Below are positions 34-36,329 of a DNA stretch of 52,416 nt, in pieces (position 1 is the stretch's first letter; each line of letters starts with the position of its first letter). Source of the stretch: Eubacteriales bacterium (lineage in GTDB: Bacteria > Bacillota > Clostridia > Oscillospirales > CAG-272); assembly GCA_045580755.1 (NCBI GenBank), contig JAZNOI010000119.1, positions 1 through 52,416 of the forward strand, written 5' to 3'. The translations under genes and the position numbers were made by a program. The notes beneath the pieces were generated by a model, which saw only the letters and a list, made by a program, of their open reading frames with translations, ran no database searches and was not told where the DNA came from.

Positions 34-71
34 TGTGAATAAATATTCACTCGAAATCTTAAATATGCACA
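34..71. promoter_or_regulatory. ArgR/AhrC operator (ARG box) plus a degenerate tandem second box
   Basis: 34-51 tgTGAATaaatATTCAct fits WNTGAAT-W4-ATTCANW; AAATAT(T/G)CAC recurs 20 bp later; lies between promoter and RBS. Confidence 0.65.
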
Positions 72-28985: not shown

Positions 28986-30536
28986 TTAGTGTTTGAAGTG
29001 TCTTTTTCCCGTGAATACCATTGCAATGCCGTATTTGTTGCAAGCGTCAATGGATTCCTGGTCTCTGATACTTCCTCCGGGCTGGATAATAGCCGTAATG
29101 CCTGCTTTGTGAGCGGCTTCAACGCAGTCTGCAAAGGGGAAGAACGCGTCGCTGGCCATTACGCTGCCCTTAACCTTGTCGCCGCCGTATTTGATAGCAA
29201 GCTCAAGTGCGGTAATTCTGTTTGTCTGGCCGGGGCCGATACCAACCGTGGCTCCGTCTTTTGCGAGTGCAATACCGTTTGATTTTGTATGCTTAACTAC
29301 CTTCATAGCGAACTTCATATCGCGGAGTTCTTCTGCGGTGGGAGCCTTTTCGGTTACAACTTTAACGTCTGCATCGTCATACATTTCGGTATTGAGCTCC
29401 TGAACGAGGAGACCGCCGGCAACCTTTTTCATATCGAACATTTCTTTGCTGTTGGGCTTTGCGATCTCGGGGAGACGGAGAACTCTGAGGTTCTTCTTCG
29501 TGCAGAGGATCTGCAAAGCTTCAGCGTCATATTCGGGAGCGATGATGATCTCGAGGAAGAGCTCGGAAAGCTTCTGTGCGGTTTTTGAATCAACGGTTCT
29601 GTTGAAAGCGACGATTCCGCCGAAAATGGAAACGGGGTCGGCTTCATAAGCTCTCATATATGCTTCGTAAACCGATTCGCCGATACCGACACCGCAAGGA
29701 TTTGCGTGCTTCAATGCAACGCAGCAAATGTCATCGCCGAATTCTTTGATAGTGTCGAGAGCGCCGTTGGCATCGTTGATATTATTGTAAGAAAGTTCTT
29801 TTCCGTTGAGCTGTTCTGCTGCAGCGAGAGTACCTTCAAAGCCTTTTCCTACTTCGCGGTAGAATGCAGCTGCTTGATGGGGGTTCTCGCCGTATCTCAT
29901 TTCGCTGACTTTTTCGTAAGTGAGAGAAAGCTTTTCGGGGAATGCGGGCATTCCGCTTTCTTTTCTGAGGTAGCCCGAAATGAGAGTGTCGTAAGCTGCG
30001 GTATGCTCAAAAACTTTGTATGAAAGCTTGAGTTTCGTATCTCTAGAAACTTCGCCGTTCGCTTCAAGCTCGCCTGTTACTGTGTCGTAGTCAACGGGGT
30101 CAACGATAACCGCAACGTCCTGCCAGTTCTTTGCTGCTGCACGGAGCATTGTGGGGCCGCCGATGTCGATGTTTTCTATTGCGTCTTCGCGTGTAACGTT
30201 GTCCTTAAGGATGGTCTGCTTAAAGGGATAAAGGTTGATCGCAACGATGTCGATGGGCGTAACGCCGAGTTCTTCGATCTGCTTCATGTGTTCTGCGTTA
30301 TCTCTCATAGCGAGAATGCCTGCGTGTATCATCGGATGGAGAGTCTTGACTCTTCCGTCGAGGCACTCGGGGAATCCCGTAACGTCGGAAACGTTTGTTA
30401 CTGCAATGCCGTTATCGGTGAGGGTCTTTGCCGTACCGCCGGTGGAGAGTATTTCATAACCCAATTTTTCGAGGCGGCGTGCAAATTCAACAACGCCGGT
30501 TTTGTCCGATAAACTGATTATAGCGCGCTTTTTCAT
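28986..30536 (-). CDS. purH: bifunctional AICAR transformylase/IMP cyclohydrolase
   Basis: [51 protein letters not shown]. Confidence 0.97.
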
Positions 30537-30561
30537 AGTGTTTTCACCTTTCTTTGTGTGT

Positions 30562-31191
30562 CTATATATTTTTTATTTTTACAATGTTGTTTTCTACGGA
30601 AAGTTTTTCGTTGCAAAGCAGATCGAGGGCTTTGGGAAGTATCTCCCATTCTGCATTTTCCATAACTCTTTTTTGCAACGTTTCGGGTGTGTCGTTTTCT
30701 TCAATATAAACGGCTTTTTGAAGGATTATCGGACCTCCGTCTGCAATCTCATTTACAAAATGGACTGTAGCCCCCGTAACTTTCACCCCTTTTTCAAGTG
30801 CGGCTTTGTGCACTCTGAGTCCGTAAAAACCCTCTCCGCAGAACGAGGGGATCAATGCGGGGTGGACGTTCAAAATTTTGTTTTGGTATCTGTTTATTAT
30901 CTCTCCGCTTAAAATGTGCATAAAGCCTGCAAGAACGATAATGTCTATATCACATTCTTCAAGTTTTTTGAGAATGGAGTTTGAAAAGTCCTCTCTGCTG
31001 TGTCCTTTTTGGATAACACAGCTTTCGATTCCGTTATTTGACGCCCTTTCCAAAGCGTATGCATTGGGGTTGCTCGAAAGAACAAGGGCGAGTTTACCGT
31101 TTGTAATATTACCCTCCTTGAAGGCATCGATGATAGCTTGCAGATTAGTTCCGCCGCCCGAAACGAGAACGGCAATGTTTTTCGTCTTCAT
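30562..31191 (-). CDS. purN: phosphoribosylglycinamide formyltransferase
   Basis: [40 protein letters not shown]; start moved to MKTKN. Confidence 0.96.
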
Positions 31192-31192
31192 A

Positions 31193-32581
31193 TCAGTTTT
31201 CTCCCGGTACGTGAACTGGATATTTACCCGTAAAACAAGCGTCGCAGTATTCGATGCTGGAATCTTTCGCAATGGTCTTAAGATCGCTGATGTCAAGATA
31301 TGCCAAGCTGTCTGCGCCGATCTCTTTTCTGATCTCGTCGAGAGTCAGACGGCAGGCGATAAGCTTGTCTCTCGATGCAATGTCCGTACCGAAATAGCAA
31401 GGATTGAGAAACGGCGGGGAAGAGATACGGAAGTGAACTTCTGTAGCTCCGGCGTGTCTTAACAGCTCTATGAGGTGAGCGCACGTCGTTCCTCTGACTA
31501 TTGAGTCGTCAACGACGACAACTCGTTTTCCTTTGAGGACTGCGGGCATGGGATTAAGTTTAAGTCTGACGAGGTTTTCTCTTTCCCCTTGCCCCGTTTG
31601 GATAAACGTTCTGCCTATGTAGCGGTTTTTGTTCAGTCCGACGCTGTACGGGATACCCGATTCGGCGGCATATCCGAGTGCGGCATCAAGACCGCTGTCG
31701 GGAACACCGATTACTATATCAGCGATATCTTTGGAGTCGCGTTTTGCGAGGCAACGGCCGGCTTCCTGTCTTGCAAAGTGAACGCTTTGACCGTCTATTA
31801 TTGAGTCGGGGCGTGCAAAATAAATGTGTTCGAAAATACATCCTGAAGTCTTCTGGCCGCATTTTTCTGTAATCGAGTGTATTCCTTGGTCAGTAACCGT
31901 AACGACTTCTCCGGGGAGAATGTCTCTGATGAATTCGCCGCCAATAGCATCAATAGCACATGACTCGGAAGCGAAGATCGTAGCCCCGTTGAGTTTACCC
32001 ATACAAAGAGGTCTGAATCCCTTGGGGTCTCGCACCGCAATAAGCTTGTTCGGTGTCATAATTACGAGCGAGTAAGCTCCGCTCACTCTGTCCATAATCC
32101 TTACGAGTGCGTCTTCCGTCGAAAGTGTCTTGAGTCTTTCTCTTGAAATAAGATACGCAAAAATCTCGGCGTCGGAGCTTGTGTGGAACATAGCGCCTGC
32201 ATCTTCGAGACTTTGTCTCATTTCGTTTGCACCGACGAGTGAACCGTTGAATGATACGGCGATCTGACCTTTCGTATATTTTGAAACGTAGGGAAGGTTG
32301 TTTTCTCTTCCTTTGTTTTCGGAAGAGGCATAACGAACGTGTCCGACTGCAATATTACCTTTGAGGTAATTCAAGATCATTTCGTTAAAGACTTCGTTTA
32401 ACAGACCTTCGTCGTTGTGGTTATAAATTTTTCCTTCATTGTTTACAGCGATGCCGCAGCTTTGCTGACCTCTGTGTTGGAGCGCGTAAAGGCCCGAATA
32501 CGTAGCCTGCGTAACGTTGATTTTTTTTGCGGGATCGAAAATTCCGAATACGCCGCATTCTTCGTGAATGTTTCCAAACAT
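31193..32581 (-). CDS. purF: amidophosphoribosyltransferase
   Basis: Propeptide then EE-CGVFG, LQHRGQ, GHVRY, YFARPDS, VVVDDSIVRGTT, Fe-S cysteines (CIFE, PCYFG, CDAC). Confidence 0.95.
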   Translation of the reverse strand: MFGNIHEECGVFGIFDPAKKINVTQATYSGLYALQHRGQQSCGIAVNNEGKIYNHNDEGLLNEVFNEMILNYLKGNIAVGHVRYASSENKGRENNLPYVSKYTKGQIAVSFNGSLVGANEMRQSLEDAGAMFHTSSDAEIFAYLISRERLKTLSTEDALVRIMDRVSGAYSLVIMTPNKLIAVRDPKGFRPLCMGKLNGATIFASESCAIDAIGGEFIRDILPGEVVTVTDQGIHSITEKCGQKTSGCIFEHIYFARPDSIIDGQSVHFARQEAGRCLAKRDSKDIADIVIGVPDSGLDAALGYAAESGIPYSVGLNKNRYIGRTFIQTGQGERENLVRLKLNPMPAVLKGKRVVVVDDSIVRGTTCAHLIELLRHAGATEVHFRISSPPFLNPCYFGTDIASRDKLIACRLTLDEIRKEIGADSLAYLDISDLKTIAKDSSIEYCDACFTGKYPVHVPGEN

Positions 32582-32617
32582 ATTTTATTATCCTCCGGAC
32601 GGTTGGGGTGCGTCAAG

Positions 32618-33115
32618 TCAAATGTTTTTGATTTCTTCTTGGAGCTTGGCGTCTTTTGCGCGGACGCCTTCTGCCATTTTAATCTTTTCTTCTTCAAGTT
32701 TTTTTGCCAAAGTTTCGTCTGACAATGCAATGATCTGAGCAGCAAGAATAGCCGCGTTTGCACAGCCGTCGATAGCAACTGCCGCAACGGGAACTCCGGG
32801 GGGCATCATTATTGTCGAAAGGAGTGCGTCCATACCGTCGAGAGCATCGCTCTTGATCGGAATACCGATGACGGGAAGTGTGGTATATGCTGCAAGAACA
32901 CCGCCGAGATGGGCAGCCTTTCCCGCCGCGCTTATAATAACTCCGAAACCGTTTTTCTTTGCGTTTTTTGCAAATTCGGCAGCCTCGGTGGGCGTTCTGT
33001 GTGCCGAATAAACGTGAGTTTCGAAAGGAATACCGAAATACTTCAGTTTTTCAAGACAATTTTTTACTTTCGGGAAATCGCTGTCGCTTCCCATAATAAC
33101 TGCTGCTTTTAACAT
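32618..33115 (-). CDS. purE: N5-CAIR mutase
   Basis: IMGSDSD, SAHRTP, AGKAAHLGG, PVIGIP, MPPGVPVA. Confidence 0.96.
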   Translation of the reverse strand: MLKAAVIMGSDSDFPKVKNCLEKLKYFGIPFETHVYSAHRTPTEAAEFAKNAKKNGFGVIISAAGKAAHLGGVLAAYTTLPVIGIPIKSDALDGMDALLSTIMMPPGVPVAAVAIDGCANAAILAAQIIALSDETLAKKLEEEKIKMAEGVRAKDAKLQEEIKNI

Positions 33116-33150
33116 TTTGTTCCTCCTGAGATAACAGTTTTGTCAGAATG

Positions 33151-33188
33151 AAAAACACAAAAAGGACATTCGTTTGCAGAACGTCCTT
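33151..33188 (-). terminator. terminator/attenuator in the purE leader
   Basis: RNA AAGGACGUUC-ugcaaac-GAAUGUCCUU followed by UUUGUGUUUUU, about 35 nt before purE. Confidence 0.7.
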
Positions 33189-33312
33189 AAGGGTTTATTT
33201 TTTTTGTTAAGTTGCAGTTTTCGCCGAGTGTTTTTGACAAATGGGTGCAAATGGTCTGTACAGACAAGCAAATAGAATGTTTAGCTTTCATTATGTCCGT
33301 ACGGCGAGCCAT
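33187..33312 (-). CDS. putative 41-aa leader peptide (uORF) of the pur operon
   Basis: GGAGG 7 nt before ATG; MARRTDIMKAKHSICLSVQTICTHLSKTLGENCNLTKKINP; stop codon overlaps the terminator 5' arm. Confidence 0.55.
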   Translation of the reverse strand: MARRTDIMKAKHSICLSVQTICTHLSKTLGENCNLTKKINP

Positions 33313-33348
33313 ATTAAAACCTCCGGCAAAAACAAAAAATACATTAAT

Positions 33349-33377
33349 ATTATACATATAATAATTGCAAATGTCAA
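33349..33377 (-). promoter_or_regulatory. sigma-A promoter of the pur leader/operon
   Basis: TTGACA (33377-33372), 17 bp, TATAAT (33354-33349). Confidence 0.85.
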
Positions 33378-33567
33378 TCAAAAAAACAATTTTTTTAGTG
33401 AAAAATGTACTGTGTTTTCAATTCGTTGTAAATACGGAAGATGGGTGAGAACCTTTCCTTTTCTCGTTATCAATCATATTTATGGATACATTATATAATG
33501 CATCAGTCTATATGTAAAGTGGAAAAATAGGATATCATCTAAAAAATATATAATGGAGAGATATCTT

Positions 33568-33780
33568 ATGATAAAATTACGTGTTTTGGAGTTACTGAAC
33601 GAAAAGGGAAAGACGAAATACTGGTTATACAAACAGCTTGGAATGAGTTATCAGAATTTCAGCAAGATGATCAATAACCAAACCAAATCCATTCGTTATG
33701 AAAACATAGAAACTATGTGTTTATTGTTCGAGTGCACACCTAACGAGTTATTTGAAATAACCGAAGACGGTGATTGTTAA
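33568..33780 (+). CDS. small Cro/CI-type (XRE) helix-turn-helix regulator
   Basis: MIKLRVLELL...TKYWLYKQLGMSYQNFSKMINNQTKSI...LFECTPNELF; GGAGAG RBS. Confidence 0.85.
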   Translation: MIKLRVLELLNEKGKTKYWLYKQLGMSYQNFSKMINNQTKSIRYENIETMCLLFECTPNELFEITEDGDC

Positions 33781-33796
33781 TATTTTTTGTAAACAC

Positions 33797-33824
33797 TTTA
33801 CAAATGGGAAAAAGTGTGTATAAT
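33797..33824 (+). promoter_or_regulatory. sigma-A promoter of cysE-cysS
   Basis: TTTACA, 16 bp, TATAAT just before the T-box leader. Confidence 0.7.
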
Positions 33825-33839
33825 GATATAAGAAGAATA

Positions 33840-34060
33840 ATGCGGTGATCGGGAAAATGCCGTCAAGAAAGGTTTTTAAAAGGGTTCAGAGACGTGTGTC
33901 ATTTTGGTGAGAGACACATACCCGCCGAGACGGAAGTGCGCCCGTGAGCAGGTGCCAATCACACCCGCTTTGTCAGCGATAAAGGACACGCAAGTTATAA
34001 ACCGAAGTGGAACCGCGGGAATTTACCGCCTTTGAGTAATATCAAAGGCGATTTTTTGTT
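33840..34060 (+). promoter_or_regulatory. cysteine T-box riboswitch
   Basis: Stem I elements (CAGAGA, GGTGAGA), specifier GAAG-TGC (Cys, 33937-33939), T-box AAGTGGAACCGCG (34005-34017), terminator CGCCTTTGA...TCAAAGGCG-ATTTTTT. Confidence 0.92.
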
Positions 34061-34080
34061 TTAAAGGGGAGACTGTGTGA

Positions 34081-34887
34081 ATGAAAATGAAAAAAGATAT
34101 TTTTGACGTGATTGCCGATGTGATCGACAGTGAGCCTGTGAAAATGGTCAAGGTTTACTGCAAGGAGAGCCGGGCGGTAAAGTGTTTGAAAAACATAAAG
34201 GAGACCGTTGCCGAGGACGTAAAAACGGTAAAGGAAAGAGACCCTGCCGCATCGAGTACGGCAGAGGTATTGTTGCTTTATTCCGGACTTCACGCTTTAT
34301 GGGCGCACAGAATATCGCACGCTCTTTATAAAAAGAATCACAAGTTTTCCGCAAGGCTGATAAGCCAGGCGGCAAAAACGATTACCGGAATAGAGATACA
34401 TCCGGGAGCGACGATAGGCAAGAACTTGTTTATTGACCACGGTGCCGGCGTTGTTATCGGAGAGACGACGGAGATCGGAGACAACTGTACGTTGTATCAG
34501 GGAGTTACCCTCGGCGGTACGGGAAAAGATACGGGAAAGAGACACCCGACTTTAGGAAACAACGTTATGGTGGGAGCGGGAGCGAGAGTGCTCGGCCCGT
34601 TTAAAGTAGGCGACGGTTCAAAAATTGCCGCAAACGCAGTCGTTTTGAACGAGGTTCCCGAAAACTGTACCGCAGTCGGAATACCCGCCAAGGTCGTAAA
34701 ACGCAACAATAAAAGGGTTGCCGACGACCTCGACCATATTCACATTCCCGACCCCGTTGCTCAGGAAATATCTCGTCTTGAAGCGAGAATAGCCGAGCTT
34801 GAAAAGGGGATCGTGAACACGAAAAAAGAGACTAAGCCCAGACAGCCGAGAAAGAAAAAAACGGCTGAAAGTGCAGATAAACAGTAA
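34081..34887 (+). CDS. cysE: serine O-acetyltransferase
   Basis: ERDPAA, TGIEIHPGATIG, FIDHGAGVVIGET, TGKRHPT hexapeptide repeats; exact start uncertain. Confidence 0.95.
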   Translation: MKMKKDIFDVIADVIDSEPVKMVKVYCKESRAVKCLKNIKETVAEDVKTVKERDPAASSTAEVLLLYSGLHALWAHRISHALYKKNHKFSARLISQAAKTITGIEIHPGATIGKNLFIDHGAGVVIGETTEIGDNCTLYQGVTLGGTGKDTGKRHPTLGNNVMVGAGARVLGPFKVGDGSKIAANAVVLNEVPENCTAVGIPAKVVKRNNKRVADDLDHIHIPDPVAQEISRLEARIAELEKGIVNTKKETKPRQPRKKKTAESADKQ

Positions 34888-34928: not shown

Positions 34929-36329
34929 ATGAAACTTTATAACACTTTGACAAGACAAAAGAGCGATTTTACCCCTCTTGACGGCAATACGGTCAGAATT
35001 TATTCATGCGGTCCTACCGTTTACGGATATGCTCATATAGGTAATATGAGAACCTACGTGTTTATGGACTTTTTGCGCAGAACGCTTCAGTGGAACGGCT
35101 ATAAGCTTCTTCATGCAATGAATATAACAGACGTAGGTCATCTTGTAAGCGACTCCGACGACGGAGAAGACAAGATGAACAAGACTGCACGCGAACAGAA
35201 AAAGACCCCCTGGGAGATCGCCGAATATTATACGGGTGTGTTTTTGCGCGATATTGACAGGTTGAATATTCAGCGCCCCGAGATCGTTCCTAAGGCGACT
35301 ATGCATATTCAGGAAATGATAGAATTTGTTCAGGGTCTTTTGAAAACGGGATATGCTTACGAAACGAGCGACGGTATTTATTACGACATAAAGAAGTTCA
35401 AGGACTACGGTAAGCTTTCGAGAATGAATTTTGACGAAAACCAGGCGGGTGCCCGTGTTGAAGTAAACAGCGAAAAGCGTCATCCCGCAGATTTTGCTCT
35501 TTGGAAAAAGGCAGACCCCACGCATATCATGCAGTGGGAATCCCCCTGGGGAATGGGTTATCCCGGCTGGCACATTGAATGCTCGGCTATGGGTCTTAAA
35601 TACCTCGGAGAAGAGTTTGATATTCATACAGGCGGTGTTGACCATATTCCGATACACCATGAAAATGAGATCGCGCAGACGTGCGGACTTTTGGGACATC
35701 CTGCGGCAAAATGGTGGATACACGGCGAATTTATGCTTGTTGACGGCGGTAAAATGTCGAAGAGCCTCGGAAATACTTATACTCTTGACCAGCTTCAGGA
35801 AAAGGGTTATTCGCCTATGGTATTCAGATATTTCTGCTTGAATGCACATTACAGTCAGAAGCTCAACTTCACGTTTGAGGGCATGGATTCAGCTAAAAAA
35901 TCTTTGAAGAATCTTAAAAATCAGATCAAGAAGCATAAGGGTGCCGACGGAAAGGTTGACGAGTCCGTTCTTGCCAAATTTACAGCTGAATTTGAAGAGG
36001 CTATAAACGACGATTTGAATATTCCGAAGGCGTTGGGTGCCGTATGGAATATGGCGAGATATGAAACCAAATCGAATGATATATATGATCTTATCATTCG
36101 TTGCGATGCGATCCTTGGCATTGATCTTGACAAGGAAGACGTTGAAGAAGAGGTTGCAAACACCGTAGATACAGACCTTGACAGAGAGATCAAAGAGCAG
36201 ATAGCTCTCAGACTCGAGGCTAAAAAGGCTAAGAATTACGCAGAAGCAGACAGAATAAGAAACGAGCTTGCGGCTCGCGGAATAATTCTCACTGATACAA
36301 AAGAGGGAACTACTTATTCTATAAAATAA
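34929..36329 (+). CDS. cysS: cysteine--tRNA ligase
   Basis: CGPTVY, HIGN, DFALWK, PGWHIECS, HHENE, KMSKS. Confidence 0.97.
   Translation: MKLYNTLTRQKSDFTPLDGNTVRIYSCGPTVYGYAHIGNMRTYVFMDFLRRTLQWNGYKLLHAMNITDVGHLVSDSDDGEDKMNKTAREQKKTPWEIAEYYTGVFLRDIDRLNIQRPEIVPKATMHIQEMIEFVQGLLKTGYAYETSDGIYYDIKKFKDYGKLSRMNFDENQAGARVEVNSEKRHPADFALWKKADPTHIMQWESPWGMGYPGWHIECSAMGLKYLGEEFDIHTGGVDHIPIHHENEIAQTCGLLGHPAAKWWIHGEFMLVDGGKMSKSLGNTYTLDQLQEKGYSPMVFRYFCLNAHYSQKLNFTFEGMDSAKKSLKNLKNQIKKHKGADGKVDESVLAKFTAEFEEAINDDLNIPKALGAVWNMARYETKSNDIYDLIIRCDAILGIDLDKEDVEEEVANTVDTDLDREIKEQIALRLEAKKAKNYAEADRIRNELAARGIILTDTKEGTTYSIK

Follow-up and report, generated by a model that had tools for sequence, protein, structure and literature searches.

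The purE leader of the window

The DNA studied here is a contig of 52,416 nucleotides (nt) from an Eubacteriales bacterium (JAZNOI010000119.1, positions 1 to 52,416; the whole stretch is called the window), which carries on its minus strand a purine operon of the gene order purE-purF-purN-purH, followed by a gene for a TIM-barrel protein. We analyzed the leader between the promoter of this operon and purE, for which an earlier note, made from the sequence alone, had proposed an ATP-sensing, translation-coupled attenuator with a short upstream open reading frame (uORF). The leader was compared with its counterparts in the same genus, the close relatives being uncultured gut bacteria represented by metagenome-assembled genomes. 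Apart from the genome of the window, the genus has 11 members; a DNA search of 61 related genomes recovered the leader, located before purE, in 10 of them and returned no leader match for the eleventh (G004, 80% complete). Together with the window and one metagenome contig (L072), these ten genomes make up the set of 12 leaders used below. The features of the locus are listed in the order of transcription, with structures taken from minimum free energy (MFE) folds.

33372..33377, minus strand: −35 hexamer TTGACA, invariant in all 10 leaders extending that far
33349..33354, minus strand: −10 hexamer TATAAT; TGTATAAT shows no variation among the 11 leaders aligned
33333..33342, minus strand: predicted transcription start and U-rich initial transcribed sequence GUAUUUUUUG, placed by the −10 spacing
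33320..33324, minus strand: GGAGG, the Shine-Dalgarno (SD) sequence of the leader ORF; all 12 leaders have an SD-like purine block 7–12 nt 5' of the ATG
33187..33312, minus strand: leader ORF of 41 codons plus TAA with three Cys codons; ATG at 33312, TAA at 33189–33187
33258..33302, minus strand: hairpin within the leader ORF (arms 33302–33294 and 33266–33258; MFE fold), variable between lineages
33217..33235, minus strand: anti-SD segment within the ORF, predicted partner of the 5' untranslated region (UTR) and SD (MFE fold, duplex energy)
33198..33205, minus strand: run of eight A residues (A8), predicted partner of the 5' U-run; not conserved
33151..33188, minus strand: intrinsic terminator, consisting of a stem-loop (33188–33162) and a U-tail
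32618..33115, minus strand: purE (AIR carboxylase; Pfam PF00731, E 1e-59), first gene past the terminator, with its ATG at 33115
28986..32581, minus strand: purF, purN and purH, after purE on the same strand (Pfam GATase and Pribosyltran, Formyl_trans_N, AICARFT_IMPCHas)

The promoter, the uORF, the stem inside it, the A8 tract and a terminator overlapping the TAA were all recovered on the minus strand where the earlier note had placed them. With its two hexamers separated by 17 nt, the promoter scored 12 of 12 and was the top promoter site within positions 32500–34200 in a pattern scan. The transcript is predicted to start at G 33342, the seventh nt past the −10 hexamer, and the sequence GUAUUUUG at this start is nearly invariant in the alignment of all 12 leaders. 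The terminator stem is formed by 10 pairs including one G-U pair, encloses a 7-nt loop and is followed by a T-run, with a folding energy of −11.9 kcal/mol; the last two bases of the TAA are at the same time the first two of the stem. The terminator is 47 nt away from purE, and a pattern scan of these 47 nt showed no promoter-like site, in agreement with the earlier note, which had seen no second promoter between terminator and purE. Its statement that no guanine, ZTP or PRPP riboswitch consensus can be seen was equally borne out, since Rfam returned no match at the gathering score in the whole window, and a permissive scan of positions 33050–33500 only gave chance-level matches (E 0.47–3.9, eukaryotic families). 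The leader peptide of the window had no match in Pfam and no homologue among proteins of 22–72 amino acids, in a search that needs shared 5-residue words and is weak for drifting peptides; to this extent, nothing marks the uORF as a stand-alone protein conserved elsewhere, which the earlier note had named as a finding that would speak against a regulatory role.

Conservation of the reading frame and its stop codon

An SD-led ORF of 37–41 codons is kept in all 12 leaders, and in each of them the first base of the TAA lies 3–11 nt 5' of the invariant GGAC of the terminator stem. The first base of the TAA is 1–9 nt from the stem, whose 5' arm begins 0–9 nt past the stop codon, a spacing at which a ribosome on the stop codon would be expected to cover this arm. 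The alignment contains only four conserved blocks, namely the promoter, the transcript start, the SD with the ATG, and the terminator arms with the T-run; the arms (GGACATTC and GAATGTCC) are invariant save for one G-U pair and one mismatch. The approximately 120 nt between the conserved blocks are barely alignable. Moreover, six ATG-to-stem distances, ranging from 120 to 126 nt, occur among the leaders, so that the frame of the ORF relative to the stem differs among the species. Four pairs of close relatives showed ratios of nonsynonymous to synonymous codon changes of 8:4, 15:7, 18:6 and 14:3, and the substitutions were evenly distributed over the three codon positions. Because frame and end point are kept in spite of near-neutral substitutions, we conclude that the frame and its stop codon are selected and the peptide largely is not. 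ORF length, SD, start codon and the overlap of stop and terminator are thus kept in 12 of 12 leaders while the peptide drifts, which is the pattern the earlier note had expected of a regulatory uORF.

To judge how readily such an arrangement appears by chance, each leader was compared with 2000 dinucleotide shuffles of its sequence. A conserved ATG whose first stop codon falls into the last 12 nt before the stem was found in 32–119 of the 2000 shuffles per sequence (1.6–6%), as opposed to all 12 real leaders. The product of these probabilities over seven divergent lineages is 7e-11, a value that is overstated due to the shared ancestry of the leaders.

We also searched for RNA structures beyond the terminator. 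RNAalifold, applied to the 12 leaders, returned the terminator as the only consensus structure, with no covarying pairs. An antiterminator was sought as a complement of the 5' arm within the leader, but the best complement was no better than in shuffled sequences in any of the 12 leaders (95–199 of 200 shuffles were at least as good). The 3' arm of the terminator pairs best with the SD region, and this pairing is significant in just 3 of 12 leaders.

Among 151 genomes of the family, the hairpin pattern of the terminator was confined to the genus, apart from one chance match within a long ORF of genome G139. A metagenome scan with the same pattern gave L072 as the sole relative, the other 79 of the 80 fetched loci being unrelated hairpins without purE. 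These unrelated contigs (L073–L151) often match on both strands, and we take the matches to be terminator-like hairpins of other organisms; the pattern is therefore not specific without the purE context. No leader with a uORF and terminator was found before purC, purD, purL or purM of the genus. A genome-wide scan of the window's genome listed 20 ORF rows at about 17 terminators that have an ORF ending beside them. Judging from the listed peptides and from one row inspected more closely, the purE leader is the only clear leader of this design in the genome; the other flagged ORFs look like C-terminal pieces of ordinary genes. The row inspected more closely, a Cys-rich ORF on contig C33, was rejected as a further leader because it turned out to be the C-terminal end of a longer frame.

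Alternation with ZTP riboswitches and recurrence across the order

Among 28 purE loci from other genera of the family, 12 carry a ZTP riboswitch identified by Rfam directly before purE. By contrast, 10 purE loci of the genus analyzed in the same way showed neither ZTP nor other matches at the gathering score, and the purine riboswitch RF00167 was found in none of the 12 genus genomes. The leader of the window thus shares with the ZTP (pfl) riboswitch RF01750 its place before purE and the terminator that follows, and differs from it by lacking any sequence or structure match. A single ZTP riboswitch is kept in 11 of 12 genus genomes. In the genome of the window, this copy (G000:C123:2657-2741, L191; 62 bits) lies upstream of a long ORF that we read, from its sequence, as a putative pyruvate formate-lyase.

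For a comparison across the order, we collected 135 purE upstream regions and added 70 from named records, resulting in 205 regions; the two samples have no identical leader in common. ZTP riboswitches were marked with an nhmmer profile built from Rfam-confirmed ZTP copies, which identified 56 of the 135 order loci and none of the 70 named-record loci. As a control, Rfam was run on 20 unmarked loci and found one ZTP copy, located elsewhere than before purE. The leaders compared were those with a terminator no more than 200 nt from purE, and a uORF was counted as stop-abutting if it was SD-led, had at least 15 codons and ended between −15 and +2 relative to the stem. Such uORFs were present in none of 26 ZTP leaders, in 24 of 36 other order leaders and in 11 of 22 leaders of the named sample. 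The same result was obtained when all SD-led ORFs of at least 15 codons were binned without pre-selecting the stop position: among the 58 non-ZTP leaders with a terminator, 29 stops fell at −10 to −1, 8 at −20 to −11 and 3 at 0 to 9, and no other 10-nt bin between −390 and +80 held more than 2; the 26 ZTP leaders had no stop at −20 to −1. ZTP riboswitches and stop-abutting uORFs are mutually exclusive before purE among the sampled order leaders.

The leader peptides of different lineages are unrelated, and the ORF is kept within the genera that were sampled several times (L216/L247/L256, L249/L253, L260/L279 and the L366 group). Grouping of like peptides assigns the 35 uORF leaders to about two dozen lineages, whose related members are not independent of each other.

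A further property of these leaders is a predicted pairing of the SD with a segment of the ORF. In the window, the 5'UTR and SD (33342–33315) are predicted to pair with positions 33235–33217 inside the ORF, and the U-run of the 5'UTR with the A8 tract. The SD:anti-SD duplex has an energy of −19.7 kcal/mol (p = 0.035 vs. 200 dinucleotide shuffles). The same test, in which the start codon together with the 30 nt preceding it is paired with the ORF body and the duplex is compared with dinucleotide shuffles, was applied to three sets of sequences. Among the 35 non-genus leaders, p ≤ 0.05 was reached by 9 and p ≤ 0.1 by 20 (median p 0.09). The respective numbers were 3 and 4 for the 12 genus leaders (median p 0.25) and 4 and 7 for 70 ordinary genes of this genome (median p 0.53). 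The pairing partners covering the SD differ in sequence between lineages. In three species of one genus of another family (L216, L247 and L256), the last approximately 45 nt of a 39-codon purE leader ORF were seen by eye to be identical in 3 of 3, and the first half of the ORF varies. This identity points to a constraint at the RNA or DNA level in the distal part of the ORF, which holds the anti-SD segment.

Candidate mechanism and alternative readings

Because the stop codon adjoins the terminator stem and no antiterminator was found, the principle of the pyrBI and pyrE attenuators offers the simplest reading of the leader. On the strength of this architecture, we consider it probable that the leader acts as a ribosome-dependent transcription attenuator of the purE-purF-purN-purH operon, in which the translating ribosome occludes the terminator. 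Transcription would begin at the consensus promoter, and a ribosome would load at the strong SD before synthesis of the leader is complete and translate the ORF of about 40 codons. Once at the TAA, this ribosome would shield the 5' arm of the terminator, the hairpin would not form and the polymerase would continue into purE. If no ribosome follows closely behind the polymerase, the terminator would form and the transcript would end approximately 190 nt from its start. Since the 5'UTR and SD are the predicted partners of a segment of the ORF, loading would probably be confined to the time before this segment is transcribed, and the decision may rest on a single co-transcriptional ribosome. The output would then reflect the pace of leader translation relative to transcription: nucleotide shortage, which slows the polymerase, or brisk translation should lead to more purine enzymes, and a fast polymerase, poor initiation or stalled ribosomes should lead to termination and fewer purine enzymes. 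This direction of control would fit purine homeostasis and the ON-under-shortage logic of the ZTP riboswitch that has been replaced, as well as the shutdown of purine synthesis in starvation responses. That the signal is linked to purines is argued mainly from the occurrence of the design before purE.

For pyrL, the leader ORF of pyrBI, action through transcription-translation coupling is described in PMC5021804. The purE leader shares with the UTP-sensitive pyrBI and pyrE attenuators of E. coli an ORF ending at or next to an intrinsic terminator ahead of nucleotide-synthesis genes. As in pyrBI and pyrE, a closely following ribosome would suffice to block the hairpin, and no separate antiterminator is needed. 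In contrast to the E. coli systems, the leader precedes purine genes in a Clostridia host, lacks a conserved run of a cognate nucleotide in its class, and additionally has a predicted SD:anti-SD helix as well as, within the genus, an excess of Cys codons. The effect of the distance between stop codon and terminator has been measured in E. coli by Li et al. 2015 (PMC4824070). Termination at tR2 dropped from about 90% to less than 10% when the stop codon stood 5 bp instead of 28 bp ahead of the terminator, and removing translation restored it. The geometry of stop codon and stem and the translation-dependent loss of termination at 5 bp match the arrangement seen here; the construct was a synthetic one and not a natural regulator. 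Leaders of the trp/his/leu/pheA type likewise combine a short SD-led ORF with an intrinsic terminator in the leader of a biosynthetic operon. Unlike these, the purE leader has no alternative antiterminator hairpin that we could find and no tandem codons for the pathway product, which is a purine, and ribosome stalling is predicted to lower rather than raise expression.

Several points weigh against this interpretation. The polymerase of B. subtilis reportedly outruns the ribosome, as Johnson et al. are said to have found in 2020, in which case occlusion would work poorly if the polymerase does not pause. Neither hairpin folds nor a 5-mer test yielded a demonstrable conserved pause element. Nine of the 12 MFE folds contain a hairpin that extends from AUG+0..7 to about +60..66, with z-scores ranging from −2.1 to +1.8, and the cognate arms of the internal hairpin pair best with each other in only 3 of 12 leaders; the stem that the earlier note had described inside the uORF is thus present in the window and not conserved as such. 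The presence of 5-mers in 20 leaders revealed no motif shared across lineages, no 5-mer being convincing once the 1024 tests were taken into account. The leader has no visibly purine-specific feature, as A-runs are not conserved and the class is not purine-rich (see below). The SD:anti-SD helix reaches p ≤ 0.1 in just 4 of the 12 genus leaders, these leaders are kin, so that counts across them overstate their independence, and the terminator and uORF finders were simple pattern scans.

A cysteine-reading attenuator in this genus is the next reading to be considered. Here, the transit of the ribosome would depend on charged tRNA-Cys through the Cys codons spread over the ORF, and a shortage of cysteine would make the ribosome lag, the terminator would form and purine synthesis would be switched off. 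Cys accounts for 63 of 459 residues (13.7%) in the 12 genus peptides vs. 2.0% in the long ORFs of the genome, an approximately 7-fold excess that is inflated by the shared ancestry of the leaders, and TGY triplets occur 63 times in frame vs. 10 and 14 times in the other two frames. Cys is the only enriched codon family; its codons are dispersed along the ORF, with runs of 2–3 in several members, and the peptide of the window has just 3 scattered Cys residues. The 35 uORFs of other lineages contain 65 TGY triplets in frame vs. 40 and 52 out of frame, which mostly reflects composition, and we rejected cysteine as a signal for the whole class. In addition, the downstream genes purE, purF, purN, purH and that for the TIM-barrel protein include none for cysteine or sulfur metabolism. 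Polycysteine uORFs are described for mycobacteria by Canestrari et al. (10.1101/834739) as Cys-rich short ORFs upstream of an operon that are leaderless, act on the accessibility of a ribosome-binding site and control cysteine genes; the purE leader differs by having an SD, abutting a terminator and preceding purine genes. As the main function of the leader, cysteine reading appears unlikely to us. The codon excess nevertheless suggests that charged tRNA-Cys is read as well in this genus and, because there is no antiterminator, cysteine shortage would lower purine gene expression. Outside the genus, runs of Cys codons are present in the leader peptides L212 and L223 of another family. L212 also contains a second terminator-like hairpin with a T-run inside the leader ORF, 5' of the stop-abutting terminator.

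The ATP-sensing attenuator of the earlier note, in which low ATP would pause the polymerase at distal A-runs, let the ribosome catch up and mask the terminator, shares the occlusion architecture of the reading preferred here. A precedent for the sensing part may be the Salmonella mgtCBR leader, whose leader ORF mgtM is said to sense ATP; both are proposed to link a nucleotide level to attenuation via a leader ORF, and the purE leader differs in that its A-rich feature is not conserved. In the genus, the distal third of the ORF is rich in A and poor in G (A 0.30–0.62, at least 0.40 in 8 of 12 leaders; G 0.05–0.23). However, the longest A-run measures 8, 8 and 7 in three leaders and 4–5 in the other nine, so that just 3 of 12 have a run of at least 7, and in L005 the stem is not preceded by any A-rich tract. 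The 35 analogous uORFs of other lineages have a mean A content of 0.26–0.29 and a mean A+G content of 0.49, or 0.52 in the last 45 nt. Richness in A beside the stem would also be expected of an A-tract facing the U-tail, and the A8 tract of the window has a structural explanation because it is predicted to pair with the 5' U-run in the long-range helix. We regard ATP sensing through A-runs as quite improbable. The proposal of the earlier note is thus supported as far as a leader ORF coupled to an overlapping terminator is concerned, and unsupported in its ATP-sensing part. The Cys-codon excess, the SD:anti-SD helix and the ZTP riboswitch at the same position in sister genera go beyond it.

Three further explanations appear very improbable. 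The first is an independent gene for a small cysteine-rich protein with its own terminator, whose translation is non-regulatory and past which purE is expressed by leaky read-through. The open frame, the recurrence of Cys near positions 15, 21–22 and 33 and a recurrent short motif QPCC would fit this idea, as opposed to the near-neutral substitutions, the missing matches in Pfam and the protein collection, the lack of a promoter for purE itself and the finding of a stop codon at the terminator, with unrelated peptides, before purE of about two dozen further lineages. The second, to which we give equally little weight, is an element acting through its RNA alone, with an incidental ORF; it would be a riboswitch not yet described or a leader bound by a protein. 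Such an element could be envisaged from the closing helix of 5'UTR and distal ORF around variable hairpins, followed by the terminator, and from its location at the place of the relatives' ZTP riboswitch. It is contradicted by the lack of conserved unpaired nucleotides, of covarying pairs and of any consensus structure save the terminator, and the positioned stop of a fixed-length ORF in all 12 leaders as well as the stop peak of the class would be unexpected for an incidental frame.

The third, for which we see as slim a chance, is control at the initial transcript, with the polymerase slipping on the U-run of GUAUUUUG according to the UTP/GTP ratio and either aborting transcripts or adding U residues that would pair with the A-rich tract and the terminator foot. 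Slippage of the initial transcript on a U-run regulates expression of pyrG and pyrBI, and could also act alongside occlusion in the purE leader. In its favor, this sequence is nearly invariant while the remaining 5'UTR varies, U-runs followed by G or A occur soon past the −10 hexamer in at least four other lineages as judged by eye, and L010, which has an interrupted U-run, also lacks the A-tract before the stem. Slippage leaves the conserved ORF unexplained, though, and U-rich 5'UTRs are common in AT-rich genomes and may just aid ribosome loading.

Returning to the preferred reading of ribosome-dependent terminator occlusion, its generalization can only be put forward tentatively: in many lineages of gut Clostridia (Oscillospirales-like), a race between ribosome and polymerase, in place of a metabolite-binding RNA or protein, may govern purine synthesis, SD:anti-SD-gated leaders may have repeatedly replaced the ZTP riboswitch, and the genus studied here may additionally read tRNA-Cys. 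Through this additional reading, purine synthesis might be tied to cysteine or redox status; PurF, the first enzyme of the pathway, appears from its sequence to be of the iron-sulfur type.

Textbook control of purine operons involves the PurR repressor and the guanine and ZTP riboswitches. Full-text literature searches found no leader-ORF attenuator of purine operons, and, within the scope of a term search, the attenuator-prediction paper PMC2965389 makes no mention of purE or purine. The occlusion principle itself is already known; new are its proposed use at purine operons of Clostridia, the alternation with ZTP riboswitches and the SD:anti-SD gate. The design is kept across the whole genus and, elsewhere, stands in place of a ZTP riboswitch and never alongside one among the sampled leaders. 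Coupling of transcription and translation is thought to be weak in Firmicutes. If translation of the leader sets read-through, this would represent a natural coupling-based control in this group and demonstrate that a sensor free of protein and ligand can replace a riboswitch. For annotation, a stop codon no more than 10 nt from a leader terminator may serve to flag such elements.

Some minor observations concern the surroundings of the leader. An AT-rich palindromic motif, TAATTAT, was noticed by eye in five genus genomes, just past the −10 hexamers of their purD and purM promoters (L230–L234, L240–L244), and within the spacer of the purE promoter in the window (about 33355–33371). It may be a shared operator or a chance occurrence in AT-rich DNA. 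Between the purE promoter and cysE, the plus strand codes for a 75-amino-acid Cro/C1-type helix-turn-helix protein (33553–33780; PF13443), whose gene is found at the same place in 4 of 11 genus loci and which may act as a local regulator. A T-box leader divergent from the purE promoter lies on the plus strand before cysE-cysS (33836–34036; E 5e-11, 53 bits vs. a gathering score of 93), the specifier of which may be UGC (Cys) by alignment reading. It is followed by a terminator-like hairpin (34027–34050), cysE (34081–34887) and cysS (34929–36329); cysE is located upstream of purE in 7 of 11 genus loci. Finally, contigs C31 and C91 of the same genome contain two paralogous 45-codon ORFs with a glycine/serine-rich middle, each of which stops about 12 nt before a strong terminator, 95–153 nt upstream of a gene. 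These ORFs may code for small secreted or modified peptides.

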